From Ostreococcus lucimarinus (taxonomy: Eukaryota), in the NCBI GenBank assembly GCA_000092065.1, contig CP000592.1: a stretch of 64,000 nt of DNA, one strand, 5' to 3'. The position numbers and the translations under genes are program-made. The notes beneath the pieces were generated by a model that saw only the letters and a list, made by a program, of their open reading frames with translations, had not been told where the DNA came from and searched no databases. Positions 630-46,675 of this stretch are shown piece by piece (positions within the stretch are counted from its first letter, which is position 1; each line of letters starts with the position of its first letter).

Positions 630-881
630 GTCTTCGCTCTACGTCCGTCGTGCGCGCGCGCGTGGGAAAGGCGGTTCGCGCGCGTCGCGCCTCGCCCGCG
701 AGGCCGGCGCGGCCGATGGTTCGTGTTTGGTCTCGCGATCCGTCGATCGCGCGCGCGACGCTCGATCGTCGCCGCGTCGATCGCGCGCGGCGCGTCGACC
801 TCGACGCGTCGATCGATCGACCGCATCGTCGATCGATCGACGACCCGCGCGTCGGTCGACGCGGCGTCGGCACCGCGCGAC

Positions 882-25473: not shown

Positions 25474-27729
25474 ATGAAACGCGTGGGTCCGATGATGACG
25501 CGCGCCCGACCGACAGTCCGAGGCGCGCGCGCGGCGACGGTGCGTCGTGGGAGCGACATGACGGCGCGCGACGCCGCGCGCGACGCGGAGGCGGCGGAAT
25601 CGCGCGAAAGCGACGCGCGGGGGGGGGATTCCGAACGCCCGGGGACGCCCGGACGGGACGACGACGACGACGCGCGCGATGGGATTTGGAACACGGCTGA
25701 GTTGCATCAGAGACTGATGCACTTGAACGTACACTCGAGCACGTCGAGCACGAGCTCGAGAAAGTCGGGCGATCCGAGCGCGAGCGGAGACGGGCTGCAG
25801 ACGACGACGAGCGGGTCCGCGAGCGGCGCGGGGGCGTCGAGCGGGACGCCGACGGGGGTGCTGCCGACGAAGTTGACGTCGAAAATGACGACAAAGGAGG
25901 TGAAATTCGGTGCTCAGAGTTTTGATTCGCTGAATCAGTACATATTGATCAAGGATCTCGGACGAGGATCGCATTCAAAGGTGAAGTTGGCGATGAATCA
26001 ACAGGATAATCAGCTCTACGCGGTGAAGTGGACGGACTCTCGAGTGAACTCCTGGAAAGCCGTTCGCAAGGAGATTGCCGTGCTGAAGAAGTTGCATCAT
26101 CCAAACATTCGTACTTTACACGAGGTCATCGATGACGAGTTCAAAAAGGAACTCATCTTAGTCTTGGAGTATTGCCAAACGGGACCCATTTTCACGCGTT
26201 TCAGCACGGTGGCGGTGGACGAAAAGGTTTTACTAGGATACGCTCGCGACATCGTGCTCGGATTGGATTACTTGCATTCGCTGCACATCGCGCACATGGA
26301 TCTTAAACCAGAAAATATGCTTCTGTGCACCGATGGCGAAGTCAAGCTCGCAGACTTTGGCGTGAGTTTCATACACGACTTGGTTTCGTCCGACGGCGTT
26401 GAGAAACGACTTGTGGGTACGCCGGCGTTTTTAGCGCCCGAAGTTCTTTCGGAAGACGGTTACGACCCATTCAAGGCAGATATATGGTCCCTGGGGGTGT
26501 GTTTCTACAATATGGCTATGGGCAAACTGCCGTTCCCAGGCAAGACGGTGTACCAAATCGTCGCAAAAGCGCGCGCAAACGAATTAGTATTCGACGAAGA
26601 CGCGCCGCTCTCAGAAAATTTCAAGGATCTTTTGCGCAACATGATGTGCGTTGACCCCGCGAAACGGCTGGATATTGCTGGCGTGATGCAGCATCTTTGG
26701 ATCACGCGCGATGGGGAAGAGCCTCTCGCGCGACCTCTCACCGAGCTGCCGCACGCCATCGTGGAGCTCACCGAGGAAGAAATCGCGAGCGCCATCAGAA
26801 CCGATCCGCTTGCCGCTTTATTGCAGCCTTCCTTCAACTTGGTGGAGTTCAACGATGGCGATATTCTTATGCACAAAGGTGCTATCGGTGAAGTGATGTA
26901 TTTCATCAACAAAGGTCACTGTGAGGTGTTGATGGACGCGATCGGAGTTGATTTAGACACCATCGATCGAGAACGCGAGACGGACGTTTTGGTCGTGCGA
27001 GAGGCTGGAGAGATTGTGGGGGAAATTGCGTTCCTTAAAGCGATGCAAGGGATCCGAGAGAAGTCGCACGTGCACGGCTATCGCACAGCGACAGTCAGGG
27101 CGAAGGGGCCGGTTGAGTGCCTCGCTGTAACCGTCCAAGACATGTTGACGGCGCTCGGTAAGGACGAACTTTCTCGAGTACGCCTCGTGCGCAGTGCGAG
27201 TTTCAAACTCGACCAAAACGAGGAGGTTCGCCTGCAGCTCAACATGAGAACCTCTAGAACGAGCAATGACTCGGACAGGAGCGAAGAAGCGCATCCTTTT
27301 AATCCGACTCGGAGGATCAGTGTGCTGTACGCCGAGGATAGCATGCCGACGCAGATGATTGTCAAAGCCTTTTTGAGGAAACTTGGCGACGTCGACGTAA
27401 CGATCGCCGCCGACGGGAAAAAGGCATTGGATGCGCATAAATCTATGAACTCTAACTTTGACTTGATTCTCATGGATTGTCAAATGCCTGTGATGGATGG
27501 TTTGGAAGCGACGACGCGCATTCGCGAACTCGACTCCGCCAAATCTGTGGTACCCATCGTGGGCGTGTCTTCTGGTGTTGAAGGAATGAGTGAAAAAGAG
27601 TGCCGCGACGTCGGGATGAATGACTTCGTCCTCAAACCACTGAACGTGCGGAAGTTGACAGATGTCATTCGCAAGACGCTACCTGAGCTCTTCGTCGAAG
27701 ATCCAGTTTCAAAAGACGAGAGAATCTGA
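25474..27729 (+). CDS. Multidomain signalling protein: Ser/Thr protein kinase (CAMK-like) + cyclic-nucleotide-binding domain + CheY-like response-regulator receiver domain
   Basis: Kinase subdomains LGRGSHSKVKLA...AVK, HRD-equivalent IAHMDLKPENMLL, DFG, and APE as GTPAFLAPE. cNMP-binding domain FNDGDILMHKGAIGEVMYFINKGHCEVL...GEIVGEIAFL...RTATVRAKGPVECLAV. Receiver domain ISVLYAEDSMPTQMIVKAFLRKLG...DLILMDCQMPVMDGLEATTRIR...NDFVLKPL, with the acid pocket, the phospho-acceptor Asp (MDCQMP) and the conserved Lys (LKP). Real ATG at 25474. Single 751-aa exon. Confidence 0.8.
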   Translation: MKRVGPMMTRARPTVRGARAATVRRGSDMTARDAARDAEAAESRESDARGGDSERPGTPGRDDDDDARDGIWNTAELHQRLMHLNVHSSTSSTSSRKSGDPSASGDGLQTTTSGSASGAGASSGTPTGVLPTKLTSKMTTKEVKFGAQSFDSLNQYILIKDLGRGSHSKVKLAMNQQDNQLYAVKWTDSRVNSWKAVRKEIAVLKKLHHPNIRTLHEVIDDEFKKELILVLEYCQTGPIFTRFSTVAVDEKVLLGYARDIVLGLDYLHSLHIAHMDLKPENMLLCTDGEVKLADFGVSFIHDLVSSDGVEKRLVGTPAFLAPEVLSEDGYDPFKADIWSLGVCFYNMAMGKLPFPGKTVYQIVAKARANELVFDEDAPLSENFKDLLRNMMCVDPAKRLDIAGVMQHLWITRDGEEPLARPLTELPHAIVELTEEEIASAIRTDPLAALLQPSFNLVEFNDGDILMHKGAIGEVMYFINKGHCEVLMDAIGVDLDTIDRERETDVLVVREAGEIVGEIAFLKAMQGIREKSHVHGYRTATVRAKGPVECLAVTVQDMLTALGKDELSRVRLVRSASFKLDQNEEVRLQLNMRTSRTSNDSDRSEEAHPFNPTRRISVLYAEDSMPTQMIVKAFLRKLGDVDVTIAADGKKALDAHKSMNSNFDLILMDCQMPVMDGLEATTRIRELDSAKSVVPIVGVSSGVEGMSEKECRDVGMNDFVLKPLNVRKLTDVIRKTLPELFVEDPVSKDERI

Positions 27730-41650: not shown

Positions 41651-42571
41651 ATGTCTTTTTTCACCGCCGCCGTGCGCCGCGTCGTCAATCATCGACGTCG
41701 CGCTCTCACGCGCGCGTTTTCCGATCACGCGCGCGTCCTCGCCCACGAAGTCCACGGCGCACCGTTCGGTTCAAAAGTCGATGCCGATGCGTCGTCAACC
41801 ATCTTCATCTTACACGGGCTCTTGGGCGCGGGCCGAAACTGGCGCAGTTTTGCGAAACAGTTGCGGCAGCGCCTCGGCGAACAAGATTGGCGCGTGGTTT
41901 TGGTGGATCTGCGCGGACACGGCGCGAGCGCGAGCATCGGGCAGCGGACGCCGGCGTGCGGCGTGGTGGAGGCGGCTCGGGACGTCGACGCCCTGGCGAA
42001 GATGATCGGGACGGCGCCGAGCGTGGTCGTGGGACACAGCTTGGGAGGGAAAGTCGCGCTGGAGTATTCAAAATTGGCGACAACGGCGCCAAAGCAGACG
42101 TGGTCCTTGGATTCGGTGCCGGGGAGAGTGGAGGCGGATCCCCACGGCGTCGCGGAGGTGTTGTCGGCGATTCGAGCGCTGCCGAGGCGCATACCCAGCC
42201 GCAAGTGGCTCGCGCAGGCGCTACCACAGTTCTCCACTGAGTTGGTGGATTGGATAGGGAGTAATTTGAAAAACGTGTGCGATGGTGGGAGTGAATTAGA
42301 GTTAGTTTTCAACCTCGATACCGTCATGCAGCTTTACGATTCATATCAAAAGACAGACAGTTGGCACGCCATCGAGGACGAGGCTTCTGGCATTTACGTC
42401 GTGAAGGCGGAAAATAGTACGCGCTGGAGTACGGCATGCGTCGAGAGGTTGAAAAGGTCGCCGGCGAATTTCCAAGTGCTAGCAAATGCTGGTCATTGGG
42501 TGCACACCGACAATCCAAACGGGTTGCTCGAGATTCTCACGACGTCCATTCCGAAAAGTAGACAACTATAG
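41651..42571 (+). CDS. Alpha/beta hydrolase, ABHD11-like (mitochondrial presequence)
   Basis: TIFILHGLLGAGRNWRSFAKQL...VVLVDLRGHGAS...VVGHSLGGKVALEYS (GxSxG)...ANAGHWVHTDNPNGL. The N-terminus MSFFTAAVRRVVNHRRRALTRAF is presequence-like. Confidence 0.6.
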   Translation: MSFFTAAVRRVVNHRRRALTRAFSDHARVLAHEVHGAPFGSKVDADASSTIFILHGLLGAGRNWRSFAKQLRQRLGEQDWRVVLVDLRGHGASASIGQRTPACGVVEAARDVDALAKMIGTAPSVVVGHSLGGKVALEYSKLATTAPKQTWSLDSVPGRVEADPHGVAEVLSAIRALPRRIPSRKWLAQALPQFSTELVDWIGSNLKNVCDGGSELELVFNLDTVMQLYDSYQKTDSWHAIEDEASGIYVVKAENSTRWSTACVERLKRSPANFQVLANAGHWVHTDNPNGLLEILTTSIPKSRQL

Positions 42572-42605
42572 CAAGTGCGTTGTGTATTTCTAGAAGCTAG
42601 GTATG

Positions 42606-45245
42606 CTAGGTCAACACGTCTATGGATGCTCGACACGTCGGGCATCGTAATGCATTTCGAAGAGAACAGAGTAAGCACGAGGCGTGGAATATGTGCGAGC
42701 AGTCTGTGCGAATCAATTTTTCATTCGTTCGACATTCGTTCAAGCAAATGGCGCACGTAGTACATTCCACGTCTTTGTCAGCGACGTACGCGCGCTTTGC
42801 GATCTCTCGTAACGTCGTGTCTCTGCGATCACGCTCGACGTCTTCAGCAGTAGTGTACAAAAGTCGGTCGCTCTCCCAAAGATTCGCTCCGAATTGTCGC
42901 GCGTCAGCGGCAAATAGATTCGAATCCGTCGCGGTCAAGTCGGCGCCAAAACGTGGTGTTCCGTCGCGAAAAAGCGCCGAATCGCTCGCATAGAGATGTG
43001 CATCGGGATAGAGATTCGAACGATGAGACACTCCGGCGATAATTCCCAATCTACTCGCAATATCTAGCAGAACTTCCGCATCGAGCGCAGCGTAAGTGAT
43101 CTGGGCTTGCGCGAGTGGTCTGGCATCCCAGTTGCTTCGCTGACAGCGCTTATCGAGCGCGTATCCGAGCGTTTCGGAAACGATGGAAGCCAACGAGTTC
43201 ATGACATCGCCTTGCAAGTCGATGACGTTGGCGTCCTGAAAACAGCCGGGTAGAGGGCTCGAGGACGACGACGGATATGACTTGCTCGCGACACGAAGTC
43301 GTTTCCAGTCTTGCTCTGGGGCAAACGCAATCTTTTTCATACCCGATTCACCGAACACGTCTGCGATGAATGTAGACATCCGCGTCCGTTCGATTCGTAA
43401 ACAATCGATGACGAATGTTTCGCAATTGTGCACTGGAGAAATTTGGAGCGTTGAAATCGGTCGCGGATCACGCCATTCGCAATCAAATGCGAAGGCGTCA
43501 CAATGTGGCGACGCAAGAACTTCTTTGATTCGCTCTAATCCGCACTCGTCTTCCACGACGATGATTCTCTTCTTCGGCACCAGGAGGGGAAGTTCAGAAG
43601 AAATTGTCATACTTTGAAGGTTTGCGTCGACGTCGAGAAACTCGTCCGGCGCGCGAAGATCAAATGTTTCGCGCAACGTTTCGCGCGTCAAAGCGTACGC
43701 CTTTGCCTCCAACCAGTCGCCTCGATCCATTAGATCGTCCAAAACTGATATTTCCATGCACTCCACGATCGCATTGCTGGCAATCGTCGTGATGTCGTTT
43801 TCCCACGTGTCCACCAAACGTCGCGCCACTTTTGACACGGTCTTTGAATCCAATGTGGCAATGGCTTCGTCCAATCCCGCGAAAATTGGTTGCCTCCACG
43901 ACTCGACGCGTCCTCCAAGATCAGCTAAACTTACCGCTGTATGTGCGACTGAGGTGGGATCGCTCGCATCGATGGCGCTGCACATGCGTTGCGCAAAATC
44001 CGTGACGCTCTCAAGCGCTCGAGACGTTGTCGTCATCGTCTTGGCGTCTGTTATTTCGAGAAGCGCCGCGATATCATTCAACTCACGGCAGTTGGTCTCT
44101 TCGCACGCACGCACGATGGCAGATACAATTTGATCTTCCGTAAACATCATCTCGCGATCCTTCATCGTCGTGACGAATGTTGAAACCGATCCGCAAATGT
44201 CAAACATTTGTCGCGACGTCACTGAACTCCACGCGCCGTTGTCCATCGCGCTCGCGACGGCGGAGGCTAAAATCCTACACGCAGTTCTACGCGCCTTCTC
44301 TTCGCGAACGCGCACACGATCGGATATTCCACAGTCACGGAGTCGCACACCCACCAAAGCTCGCAATATCGATAAATTGCCATCGTCGTCGGCGACGCCC
44401 GCGAGTGTCTCCGCGGCGCGCGAAGAAACATCCGGCTTCTCCCCGCTCACCGCAATGGCTGTCTCAGCACGCAATATCTTCGCCACTAACTCAACCATGG
44501 CGTCACTTTCGACGTCTTTCGACAATCTTTGGTCCCGCAACAACGTCCCAAACTCCTCCCACGCCGTCTCCGCGTCTTTTTCTCGCTTCTGCTTCGCCGC
44601 CGCTTTTCGCTCCAGCGAACGATCAATACCGTCGGGATTATCCCACGACACTCCTTTATTCAATCGACTAAAATTGCCTCGACGAGATTCCCTCGTCGAC
44701 ACCCCCCGAGCCGGTTCGTTCGCCACCTCATCCGGAAAAAATCGCTCATCCAGGTCGCCGTACTTTAAGCCGTCCGAGTGCGACGCTCGAAAATTCCACC
44801 ACGTCGTCTCTCGCCGCTCGGCTTCCTCGATCGCCTCGATCGTCGCCCTTTCGCAGTGCGACAGCGCTAACGATCGCACGCTTTGTCCCTTATTATTCAC
44901 TATTTTCACCTTTGCCCCGCGCTGCAGCAGGTACAGCACGACGTCGTCGCGACATCGCGTCGTCGCGTAAAACACCGCCGTCTTTCCGTAGTTGTGTCGC
45001 CCCGTGCTGATCTGATCGATCGCCCCTCCCCTCTCCAGCACGCACTTCACCACGTCGAGCGACCCTCGCCACGCCGCGAGGTGCAGCGGCGCCTTCCCGG
45101 ACCTCGCCGCGCGTCGCGCGAGCAATTCGTCGTCGCCCTCGGGTCGCGCGTCGAGCCACTCGCGCAGACCGTCGACGTCGTCGGCCACGAGCAGGCGCTG
45201 CGGCACGCACGCCTCGGCGCGTCGCGCGCGGGCGACGATGGGCAT
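42606..45245 (-). CDS. Multidomain protein: N-terminal ankyrin repeats + DEDDy 3'-5' exonuclease (RNase D/WRN-exo/Mut-7-like) domain + C-terminal RING-H2 finger
   Basis: ANK repeats GKAPLHLAAWRGSLDVVKCVLERGGAIDQ...GKTAVFYATTRCRDDVVLYLLQRGAKV. Exo motif I AFAFDCEW, motif II HNCETFVIDC, motif III ITYAALDAEVLLDI with the DEDDy Tyr. RING-H2 CAICLNECRTNEKLIRTDCSHIFHASCLLCSLRNALRCPTC. Start is ATG 45243-45245 (MPIVARARR...). The track's extension to 45851 overlaps the BolA2 gene on the other strand. Confidence 0.7.
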   Translation of the reverse strand: MPIVARARRAEACVPQRLLVADDVDGLREWLDARPEGDDELLARRAARSGKAPLHLAAWRGSLDVVKCVLERGGAIDQISTGRHNYGKTAVFYATTRCRDDVVLYLLQRGAKVKIVNNKGQSVRSLALSHCERATIEAIEEAERRETTWWNFRASHSDGLKYGDLDERFFPDEVANEPARGVSTRESRRGNFSRLNKGVSWDNPDGIDRSLERKAAAKQKREKDAETAWEEFGTLLRDQRLSKDVESDAMVELVAKILRAETAIAVSGEKPDVSSRAAETLAGVADDDGNLSILRALVGVRLRDCGISDRVRVREEKARRTACRILASAVASAMDNGAWSSVTSRQMFDICGSVSTFVTTMKDREMMFTEDQIVSAIVRACEETNCRELNDIAALLEITDAKTMTTTSRALESVTDFAQRMCSAIDASDPTSVAHTAVSLADLGGRVESWRQPIFAGLDEAIATLDSKTVSKVARRLVDTWENDITTIASNAIVECMEISVLDDLMDRGDWLEAKAYALTRETLRETFDLRAPDEFLDVDANLQSMTISSELPLLVPKKRIIVVEDECGLERIKEVLASPHCDAFAFDCEWRDPRPISTLQISPVHNCETFVIDCLRIERTRMSTFIADVFGESGMKKIAFAPEQDWKRLRVASKSYPSSSSSPLPGCFQDANVIDLQGDVMNSLASIVSETLGYALDKRCQRSNWDARPLAQAQITYAALDAEVLLDIASRLGIIAGVSHRSNLYPDAHLYASDSALFRDGTPRFGADLTATDSNLFAADARQFGANLWESDRLLYTTAEDVERDRRDTTLREIAKRAYVADKDVECTTCAICLNECRTNEKLIRTDCSHIFHASCLLCSLRNALRCPTCRASIDVLT

Positions 45246-45370
45246 GCGCGCGCGCGCGGTCGCGAGGCGCGACGACGACGGCGCGCGCGCGCGCATGCGT
45301 GTGACGACGTCGCGAGCACAGACGGCGAAACAATTGGATTCGCCGAGGACGCACACGTCGTCGCGCGCGC

Positions 45371-45604
45371 ATGAGCTCGACGCGCGAGGTGCGCGAGCTG
45401 CTCGAGCGCGCGTTCGCGCCGTGCGCGGAGCTGGACGTCGTGGACGTGAGCGGGGAGTGCGGGAGCGCGTTCGAAGTGCGCGTGGTGAGCGAATCGTTTC
45501 GAGACAAGAGTCGGATTGAGAGTCATCGCGCGATTCACGACGCGCTGGGGAGCGTGATGGGAAAGATACACGCGCTGAGCGTGAAAGTGGCCAAGGCGCC
45601 GTGA
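45371..45604 (+). CDS. BolA2-like small protein (77 aa)
   Basis: MSSTREVRELLERAFAPCAELDVVDVSGECGSAFEVRVVSESFRDKSRIESHRAIHDALGSVMGKIHALSVKVAKAP fits the BolA signature (...L.V.D.S..CG..F.V.VVS..F.GKS.+..HR.++..L......IHAL...T..P). Real ATG at 45371. Confidence 0.65.
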   Translation: MSSTREVRELLERAFAPCAELDVVDVSGECGSAFEVRVVSESFRDKSRIESHRAIHDALGSVMGKIHALSVKVAKAP

Positions 45605-45673
45605 ACGAGGCGCGACGTAGGGGCGCAGAGGATCGTGATGGACCGTTGTTATGGAATGAATGTTGGCTACGAA

Positions 45674-46675
45674 TCAACGCACGGCGAGAAATTTCTCGAG
45701 TTTGGCCACCATCACGGGAGGCCAACGACGTATGCGCGTGACGTAATCGATATCGCGATATTTGGCGCAACCACTCTCGCGCGAACACGCTCGTTCCCAC
45801 GCATCTTCGGCGTCTTCGAAGCGGGCCGCTGAATAATATAAAGCGGCGCACGCCGCGCGCACGTCGGCGCTGTTCGGCGCGCGGCGGACGAGAGATTCGA
45901 GCTGTTTCAGCGCTTTATCTTCGTTTCCAAGCTGAGCTTCGGCGAGGGCAAGGTTGGAGAAGGCGTAAATAGCGCCGTCCAGGCGTTGCGTCGTCGAGGC
46001 GCCGACTTTGAAGCCGCGCGCGCCTTGGAAAAGATTCGCCGCGCTTTCGTAGTCATCCTTTGCCTTGTCCCAATTTCCGAGCGAGCCGTGGACGTTACCT
46101 CTAGAGTTCAAAACGTACGGATCCGGCGCGAATCCCGAGACTTCACACAACCGCAACACCTCGTCATAGTCGCGCAGGGCGTCCCGGAAGCGGTACACTC
46201 CCTCCAGAGCTAACGCCCTTCCCGCGAGAACGCGCGCCGAAGCGCTCGCATCGCCTTCGCACATCGCCACGGCCTCATCGTACGCTTTCAACGCATCGTC
46301 AAACTGTTTCGCGTCCACGCTCACCGTGGCCTTGGCCTCGATCCACCGCAGCTCGTTCGGCTCGGCTCGGCGCAGGGCGTCCAGCGCGTCGAGAGCGCGG
46401 CTAAAGTCTTGCACGTCGTACGCCTCTACCAACGCGCGCTGTAATTCGTCGATGCTCTCAGATGCAAACGCGCGGGAGTTTGCGCGCAACGAGCAACAGA
46501 ACGCGCCGATGACGGCGCTTCGGCGCGTCGTCGTCGTCCCGGAAGTGCTCGGGACGTCATCGGTCGGTGCTTTGAACCGTCGCGTTTGGTTTTGTCCACG
46601 TTCGGGGCGCGCGTCGGCGCGAACGCAGCGCGAAGACGACGCGATGATCGGTGTCGCGCTATACGAAGCGCGCAT
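45674..46675 (-). CDS. TPR-repeat protein with an organellar-type N-terminal presequence
   Basis: At least five or six 34-residue TPR-like helical repeats (RALALEGVYRFRDALRDYDEVLRL; YVLNSRGNVHGSLGNWDKAKDDYESA; IYAFSNLALAEAQLGNEDKALKQLESLV; AACAALYYSAARFEDAEDAWERA). The N-terminus is Ser/Thr/Arg-rich. ATG 46673-46675. Confidence 0.6.
   Translation of the reverse strand: MRASYSATPIIASSSRCVRADARPERGQNQTRRFKAPTDDVPSTSGTTTTRRSAVIGAFCCSLRANSRAFASESIDELQRALVEAYDVQDFSRALDALDALRRAEPNELRWIEAKATVSVDAKQFDDALKAYDEAVAMCEGDASASARVLAGRALALEGVYRFRDALRDYDEVLRLCEVSGFAPDPYVLNSRGNVHGSLGNWDKAKDDYESAANLFQGARGFKVGASTTQRLDGAIYAFSNLALAEAQLGNEDKALKQLESLVRRAPNSADVRAACAALYYSAARFEDAEDAWERACSRESGCAKYRDIDYVTRIRRWPPVMVAKLEKFLAVR

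Follow-up and report, generated by a model that had tools for sequence, protein, structure and literature searches.

Within a window of 64,000 nucleotides from Ostreococcus lucimarinus (contig CP000592.1 of assembly GCA_000092065.1), an earlier note made from the letters of the DNA alone drew attention to positions 42606–45245 on the minus strand, where ankyrin repeats, a 3'-5' exonuclease and a RING-H2 finger seemed to be encoded together in one protein. This locus raises the question of whether one gene or two are present and, if only one, how such parts came to be joined and what a nuclease attached to a candidate ubiquitin ligase might do. The analysis reported here establishes that 42606–45245 is one real, intronless gene of O. 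lucimarinus CCE9901, whose product of 879 amino acids (aa) consists, from the N- to the C-terminus, of ankyrin repeats, a conserved signature segment, a HEAT/ARM-like helical domain, a DEDDy exonuclease, three copies of a short motif and a RING-H2 finger. Every sequence and fold criterion examined places the protein in the PF01612 DEDDy superfamily, among the RING-H2 ligases and among the ankyrin-repeat proteins. The simplest reading of its history is a lineage-specific fusion that took place in an Ostreococcus-type lineage.

A single intronless gene

The open reading frame (ORF) begins with the ATG at 45245 and continues without stops to the TAG at 42608–42606, a length that would be expected to remain free of stops with a probability of about 4e-14 under the base composition of the window. 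It constitutes a complete coding sequence for which no intron is required, and the coordinates given in the earlier note are exactly its limits. The ATG at 45245, after which the sequence MP[IVR]V[AG]RA is kept in orthologues, is the preferred start, while the in-frame ATG at 45296, taken as the start in an 896-aa gene call of the same ORF (Logan assembly, L009), could be the start instead. The source is confirmed by the exact matches of three neighbouring proteins to O. lucimarinus CCE9901, namely XP_001420641.1 (alpha/beta-hydrolase, abhydrolase), XP_001420644.1 (BolA) and XP_001420640.1 (Myb). An identical 879-aa protein (P0054) is present in public metagenome collections, and the exact protein was matched only among metagenome and Logan sources.

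As an alternative, the long ORF could merge two adjacent genes, with the RING finger made as a protein of its own in O. lucimarinus. The RING module is indeed a separate gene in related genera, and the numbering of the NCBI models (XP_001420641, XP_001420644) and of the EukProt models (P005284, P005287) is compatible with two annotated genes between those for abhydrolase and BolA, which counts against a single gene. However, there is neither a stop codon nor an in-frame Met between the end of the exonuclease (residue ~735) and the first motif (residue 748), the junction region is itself conserved, and the continuous ORF persists in lineages merely 49–60% identical, which a chance read-through would not. 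The merging of two genes was rejected on these grounds (no stop, no internal Met before the RING module, a conserved fused ORF), and we regard it as extremely improbable. The reference annotation may instead contain the fused gene in a split or truncated form and, because the accession numbering leaves two models at a locus with a single ORF, may hide the full architecture in databases.

Both strands of 42575–45851 carry many other long, overlapping ORFs, e.g., 44170–44970 on the plus strand (266 aa) and 44893–45507 on the minus strand (204 aa). These were rejected as genes, their Arg/Ala/Ser-rich translations being typical of DNA rich in guanine and cytosine (G+C). A mechanical, GTG-started extension of the main ORF to 45851 was likewise discarded as coding, as a by-product of G+C-rich DNA that overlaps the BolA gene on the opposite strand.

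Domain architecture of the fused protein

The earlier note had correctly placed ankyrin repeats, exonuclease and RING finger in one ORF, and the searches with hidden Markov models that it had proposed (PF01612, Ank and zf-RING_2) all returned matches exceeding the curated cut-offs. What it had missed is the helical domain and two conserved segments for which Pfam has no model (Table 1). At the N-terminus, the Pfam Ank_2 match extends over residues 49–115 (E 5.8e-9), above its curated cut-off; thus, the gathering score for ankyrin repeats (PF12796 / PF00023) is exceeded and, moreover, the predicted structure exhibits the stacked helix-pair fold. The ankyrin repeats are followed by the signature segment, with invariant columns from W149 to K197 in the orthologue alignment (A1) and a core at least 80% conserved over 43 proteins, diatom relatives included. 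Residues 146–205 are the most conserved stretch of the entire protist family. None of the Pfam models covers this segment or the three-motif region, both of which are conserved, and AlphaFold2 models the signature segment at low confidence (predicted local distance difference test, pLDDT, 42–50). The helical middle is modelled well as an isolated domain (pLDDT 87, predicted template modelling score 0.81), and the full-length AlphaFold2 model has a mean pLDDT of 73; the predicted structures were built on shallow alignments of 8–13 sequences.

Table 1. Coordinates of the fused gene, of the parts of its product and of the flanking genes, as positions in the window and residues of the 879-aa protein.
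Feature	Residues	Positions	Strand	Remarks
Coding sequence of the fused gene		42606..45245	-	879 codons + TAG stop; intronless
Alternative in-frame ATG		45294..45296	-	17 codons upstream of the preferred start
Ankyrin-repeat domain	~14-145	44811..45206	-	two repeats score in Pfam; ~four helix pairs in the model
Conserved signature segment	146-205	44631..44810	-	WxN[FY]Rx[ST]HSDGxxYGDLDxRF ... SR+xxF
All-alpha helical-repeat domain (HEAT/ARM-like)	~206-540	43626..44630	-	~330 residues
DEDDy 3'-5' exonuclease domain	~555-735	43041..43583	-	Pfam PF01612
Catalytic codon D588		43484-43482	-	
Catalytic codon E590		43478-43476	-	
Catalytic codon D646		43310-43308	-	
Catalytic codon Y718		43094-43092	-	
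Catalytic codon D722		43082-43080	-	
Three copies of D-x-x-L-[YW]-x-[ST]-D-x-x-L-[FY]	748-797	42855..43004	-	front half of the C-terminal RING module
Motif copy 1	748-759			DAHLYASDSALF
Motif copy 2	769-778			DLTATDSNLF
Motif copy 3	788-797			NLWESDRLLY
Helix	800-817			between the three motifs and the RING
RING-H2 finger	831-872	42630..42755	-	Pfam zf-RING_2
Alpha/beta-hydrolase gene		41651..42571	+	synteny anchor; convergent with the fused gene; exact match XP_001420641.1
BolA-like gene		45371..45604	+	synteny anchor; divergent from the fused gene; exact match XP_001420644.1

The exonuclease domain

The match to PF01612 (DNA_pol_A_exo1) extends over residues 563–733 (E 6.8e-18, 65.5 bits against a cut-off of 23.6) and profile positions 3–168 of 173, and the predicted domain shows the RNase H-like exonuclease fold. 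The ExoI motif (D-x-E) is provided by D588 and E590 in FDCEW, and ExoIII (Y-x3-D) by Y718 and D722 in YAALDAE, as already recognized in the earlier note (FDCEW, YAALDAEVL). Its choice of HNCETFVIDC as the second motif was mistaken: according to the alignment to Nibbler (7jw2), ExoII is KKIAFAPEQDW with the catalytic D646, a residue that never varies, whereas some members of the family have M, H or Q in place of D614, the Asp of HNCETFVIDC.

None of the five DEDDy residues varies among the 13 aligned orthologues or in any alignable member of the wider family. The loss of catalytic residues that would mark a pseudo-exonuclease was therefore not seen, and the domain is, judging from its sequence, likely active. 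A catalytically dead scaffold, which would turn the whole protein into a substrate-adaptor ubiquitin ligase (E3), is very unlikely, as the five residues are kept not only in the fused clade but also in relatives without a RING finger at 25–30% identity.

Among solved structures, the best sequence match is Nibbler (7jw2, E 1.2e-9), the WRN exonuclease matching far more weakly (E 0.019–0.22); Foldseek aligns the domain to human WRN exonuclease with a template modelling score of 0.72. The exonuclease seems closest to those of Nibbler/MUT-7 and WRN. With Nibbler, MUT-7 and EXD3 it shares the motifs LDKxxQxSNWxxRPL and YAALDA as well as a helical-repeat domain placed directly N-terminal of the exonuclease (PMC11347159). 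These likenesses, i.e., an exonuclease apparently closest to Nibbler in sequence and fold and a preceding helical-repeat domain as in Nibbler and MUT-7 (PMC11347159), would be expected of a Mut-7/Nibbler orthologue acting as a 3' trimmer of Argonaute-bound small RNAs, with the RING finger regulating the silencing machinery; moreover, one diatom relative bears the depositor's label "Exonuclease mut-7". However, this label is automatic, the MUT7-C domain found in MUT-7 and EXD3 (and absent in Nibbler) is absent from the protein, with no Pfam match at E up to 1, and the genes for Dicer and Argonaute are absent from both O. lucimarinus and O. tauri (PMC4014436). The Mut-7-like role in small-RNA pathways suggested by the earlier note is unlikely because both genes are lacking (PMC4014436), and we consider the orthologue explanation highly improbable. 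Membership in the MUT-7/Nibbler family proper is not established, since MUT7-C is absent, the helical domain has no detectable similarity to the N-terminal domain of Nibbler, and the small-RNA context is missing. The protein also differs from Nibbler, MUT-7 and EXD3 in its additional N-terminal ankyrin repeats and C-terminal RING-H2 finger.

A second possibility is that the protein would act on DNA as a WRN-like repair nuclease, with the RING finger ubiquitinating replication or repair factors in analogy to DNA-repair enzymes that bear a RING. The Foldseek match to WRN and the precedent of Slx1, a GIY-YIG nuclease with a C-terminal RING (PMC1564403), are consistent with such a role. The sequence similarity to WRN is weak in comparison with that to Nibbler, no DNA-binding or helicase module is present, and the transfer RNA (tRNA)-editing domain carried by members of the wider family (see below) points to RNA. 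We therefore regard a DNA-directed repair nuclease as unlikely. More generally, the protein lacks the RecQ helicase, HRDC and PMC2NT modules of WRN exonuclease, EXD2, RNase D and Rrp6 and shows weak sequence similarity to them, and none of these proteins has ankyrin repeats or a RING finger.

The C-terminal motifs and RING-H2 finger

The three motifs that open the C-terminal module are near-invariant in orthologues and common to the stand-alone small RING proteins described below (alignment A3), and their region has a pLDDT below 40 in the AlphaFold2 model. To our knowledge, the known short linear motifs (acidic dileucine, Atg8-interaction and adaptor-ear motifs) provide no counterpart, the pattern fitting none of them by inspection. 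The full-length model contains no confident contact of the motif region with the ankyrin or helical domains of the same protein (pLDDT below 50), and docking of the motifs onto these domains, which was considered, is unsupported by it.

The RING finger matches zf-RING_2 (PF13639) over residues 830–872 and profile positions 2–44 of 44 (E 3.4e-9, 37.3 bits against a cut-off of 27.3). Its C3H2C3 ligands follow the canonical cross-brace pattern, C831-x2-C834-x14-C849-x-H851-x2-H854-x2-C857-x10-C868-x2-C871, and all eight are kept in all RING-bearing orthologues. In structures of RNF4 bound to a ubiquitin-charged conjugating enzyme (E2~Ub), the residues contacting the E2 are a hydrophobic residue after the first Cys, a Pro after the seventh ligand Cys and a basic "linchpin" after the eighth. 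In the fused protein, these positions are filled by I833, P869 and R872, the last of them directly after the final Cys, and the RING is, by its sequence features, likely active. The RING of RNF4 is also the best solved relative (E 3e-17 with the tandem construct, about 2e-8 with a single RING), with an alignment that includes the ...SL+NAxxCPTCR tail, of which CPTCR is identical; the RING-H2 ligases synoviolin, AMFR, Arkadia/RNF165 and RNF13 are the next-best matches. However, RNF4 has a C3HC4 rather than a C3H2C3 RING, and the fused protein is devoid of the SUMO-interaction motifs, transmembrane segment and PA domain of RNF4-type and ATL/RNF13-type ligases.

Orthologues and the wider family

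The same architecture is carried by 11 clusters of proteins 49–61% identical, and at least five further Ostreococcus-type lineages have retained it. The apparent lack of ankyrin repeats in some orthologues (P0008–P0011) was dismissed as a gene-calling artefact, since at locus L005 an 83-base GT..AG intron is preceded by an ankyrin exon. In this region (7480–7900 of L005), the intron follows the first ankyrin exon and the prokaryote-style calls P0009–P0011 therefore miss the repeats. Moreover, P0002 contains a 33-aa insertion within the ankyrin region that resembles an unspliced in-frame intron.

With a profile spanning the exonuclease to the RING, 1.84 billion representative proteins were searched exhaustively by HMMER, in place of an earlier search with such a profile (11 matches, with known orthologues missed), and the best 150 matches were inspected. 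Among these, exonuclease and RING do not occur together outside the Ostreococcus-type clade, a result that applies to the best-ranking matches, as a very divergent pair could rank lower. Neither the profile searches nor a full-text search of the literature revealed a paper or named family with the ankyrin–DEDDy exonuclease–RING architecture, in agreement with the statement of the earlier note that it recognized none.

The part of the protein that precedes the C-terminal module is, by contrast, widespread among protists. The nearest relative without a RING finger is a "predicted protein" of Micromonas pusilla CCMP1545 (XP_003058095.1; 31% identity over 81% of the query), which has the ankyrin repeats, signature, helical middle and exonuclease and ends directly after the latter. 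Its gene lies in a neighbourhood unlike that of the fused gene, and neither a RING ORF nor a RING exon was found within 1.7 kb downstream, where the next gene is unrelated. About 30 further proteins, none of them with a RING, combine ankyrin repeats and signature with a DEDDy domain at the C-terminus, and in an alignment of the fused protein with 42 relatives all elements of the ankyrin–signature–helical–DEDDy set are present. These relatives, which include a protein of the diatom Seminavis robusta and many metagenome proteins, are 40–66% identical to the fused protein over the ankyrin and signature region (M. pusilla apart); in the exonuclease domain, RING-less relatives are only 25–30% identical and the DEDDy residues are still invariant. 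They differ from it in ending directly after the exonuclease and, in some cases, in possessing an N-terminal PF04073 aminoacyl-tRNA editing (YbaK/ProX-like) domain. This domain occurs in several stramenopile-type members (P0021, P0026, P0017), and the S. robusta protein labelled "Exonuclease mut-7" is among its carriers. The PF04073 domain hints that the ankyrin-exonuclease family acts on tRNA 3' ends.

Proposed origin of the fused gene

In related picoalgae, the C-terminal module also exists by itself. The exhaustive HMMER search revealed small proteins of 149–198 aa with their own Met start that consist of the three motifs, the helix and the RING-H2 finger (P0152, P0161, P0255, P0326–P0335 and others), in which Pfam detects the RING only. 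Their alignment with the fused protein covers all of its last ~135 residues (including 748–872) at 31–41% identity, and they share with it the three motifs, the RING and the slot beside the abhydrolase gene. They differ from it in their length of 150–200 aa, their own start codon and the lack of a nuclease, whereas in the fused protein the same module forms the C-terminus. The genes of these proteins are found directly upstream of the abhydrolase orthologue, often with a Myb gene next.

This shared position makes the history of the locus traceable. In O. lucimarinus, 34 bases (42572–42605) separate the stop codons of the fused and abhydrolase genes; at locus L002, the orthologous coding regions share 11 bases, an illustration of the compactness of these genomes. 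A scan of metagenomes with a profile of the C-terminal module provided 40 loci, whose lineages were inferred from G+C content and similarity only. In every fused locus and nearly all stand-alone loci, the RING end is immediately followed by the abhydrolase gene. In 16 of the 40, the fused gene occupies the order HisPhos-TPR-BolA-[gene]-abhydrolase-Myb. Another four (L030–L033, G+C 0.40) have the order HisPhos-TPR-BolA-[165-aa RING protein]-abhydrolase, so that BolA is conserved beside the stand-alone RING gene as well as beside the fused one and the slot is the same on both sides; ankyrin, helical or exonuclease coding sequence was found nowhere in these four loci. The remaining 20 (G+C 0.56–0.71) also contain a stand-alone RING gene, with the abhydrolase gene detected beside it in 18, and this high-G+C group agrees in composition with the M. 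pusilla-type contig bearing the ankyrin-exonuclease without a RING. A view of the unfused arrangement is offered by L031 (3640–5688; polar metagenomes, picoeukaryote), where the 165-aa protein P0152 is encoded between BolA and abhydrolase, in the place of the 879-aa gene of O. lucimarinus.

The fused gene is accordingly most simply read as a lineage-specific fusion, for which an ankyrin–helical–exonuclease coding region would have come to lie in frame between the BolA-side promoter and a resident RING gene. Fission in several other lineages is the less parsimonious alternative. The earlier note had treated a RING encoded by a separate gene as evidence against its reading. In O. lucimarinus the RING is not separate, being part of a continuous and conserved ORF without an intervening Met, while in related genera it is separate at the same locus; this does not refute the fusion and instead shows its origin.

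Proposed function

Our preferred explanation, held with moderate confidence, is that one fused gene encodes an RNA-leaning nuclease for 3' trimming or decay that is coupled to ubiquitination. According to this proposal, the ankyrin and helical repeats would bind a partner or a ribonucleoprotein, the exonuclease would trim or degrade a single-stranded 3' end by two-metal DEDDy chemistry, and the RING would recruit E2~ubiquitin to mark either a protein bound to the substrate or the enzyme itself. RNA is the more likely substrate, DNA being a live alternative; this preference is based on the best sequence relative, Nibbler, whose exonuclease is specific for single-stranded RNA (PMC11347159), and on the relatives fused to a tRNA-editing domain. 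The lineage-specific fusion predicts a partnership of the two proteins where they are separate: following the Rosetta-stone argument, the two ancestral proteins may already have worked together, and the separate proteins would interact in unfused species.

Besides the gene numbering discussed above, several considerations weigh against this explanation. The structural match of the exonuclease to the DNA-directed WRN equals that to Nibbler. RING fingers and ankyrin repeats are promiscuous in eukaryotic domain shuffling, so their fusion need not mean mechanistic coupling. The direction of the fusion depends on parsimony, with the lineages of the metagenome contigs inferred, and the fusion is itself the sole argument for an interaction of the two ancestral proteins, because the model shows no confident contact between motifs and repeats.

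A more far-reaching version, which is tentative and rather doubtful, would extend the ubiquitin-coupled nuclease to species without the fusion. In Micromonas-type algae, and perhaps in other protists, the three-motif RING-H2 ligase and the ankyrin–helical DEDDy exonuclease might form a hitherto undescribed two-component system for ubiquitin-coupled surveillance of 3' ends. The tRNA 3' end is suggested as its substrate because stramenopile relatives carry N-terminal aminoacyl-tRNA editing domains.

Another reading frame in the window

Elsewhere in the window, the plus strand contains a 751-aa ORF (25474–27729) whose cluster mates are labelled either CaM-kinase kinase or CheY-like/CRP-like cAMP-binding protein, an unusual mix.

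Significance

RNase L, which combines ankyrin repeats, a kinase-like domain and an RNase, is one precedent for a nuclease equipped with ankyrin repeats. Slx1 (GIY-YIG + RING) and ANKLE1/ANKRD41 (ankyrin + LEM + GIY-YIG) are further precedents for a RING or ankyrin repeats on a nuclease (PMC1564403). However, the nuclease folds of all these proteins are unrelated to that of the fused protein, and none of them joins both ankyrin repeats and a RING to a DEDDy exonuclease. Nibbler/WRN-type DEDDy exonucleases and RING-H2 ligases are each well known, whereas their covalent fusion together with ankyrin and helical domains is undescribed in the searchable literature. The genome that contains the gene was already public; the novelty lies in recognizing the architecture, in tracing its origin by fusion at a conserved locus and in predicting that two uncharacterised families are partners.

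Ostreococcus tauri is genetically transformable. As an organism with a minimal genome and without RNA interference, it would offer a clean setting to explore the role of a Nibbler-like exonuclease in the absence of small RNAs. Moreover, the traceable fusion leads to a testable prediction, namely a functional partnership between a small RING protein and a protist exonuclease that are both widespread. If the two-component proposal were true, these organisms would possess a pairing of nuclease and E3 whose logic resembles that of tRNA cleavage and ubiquitination in ribosome-associated quality control, built from unrelated parts.

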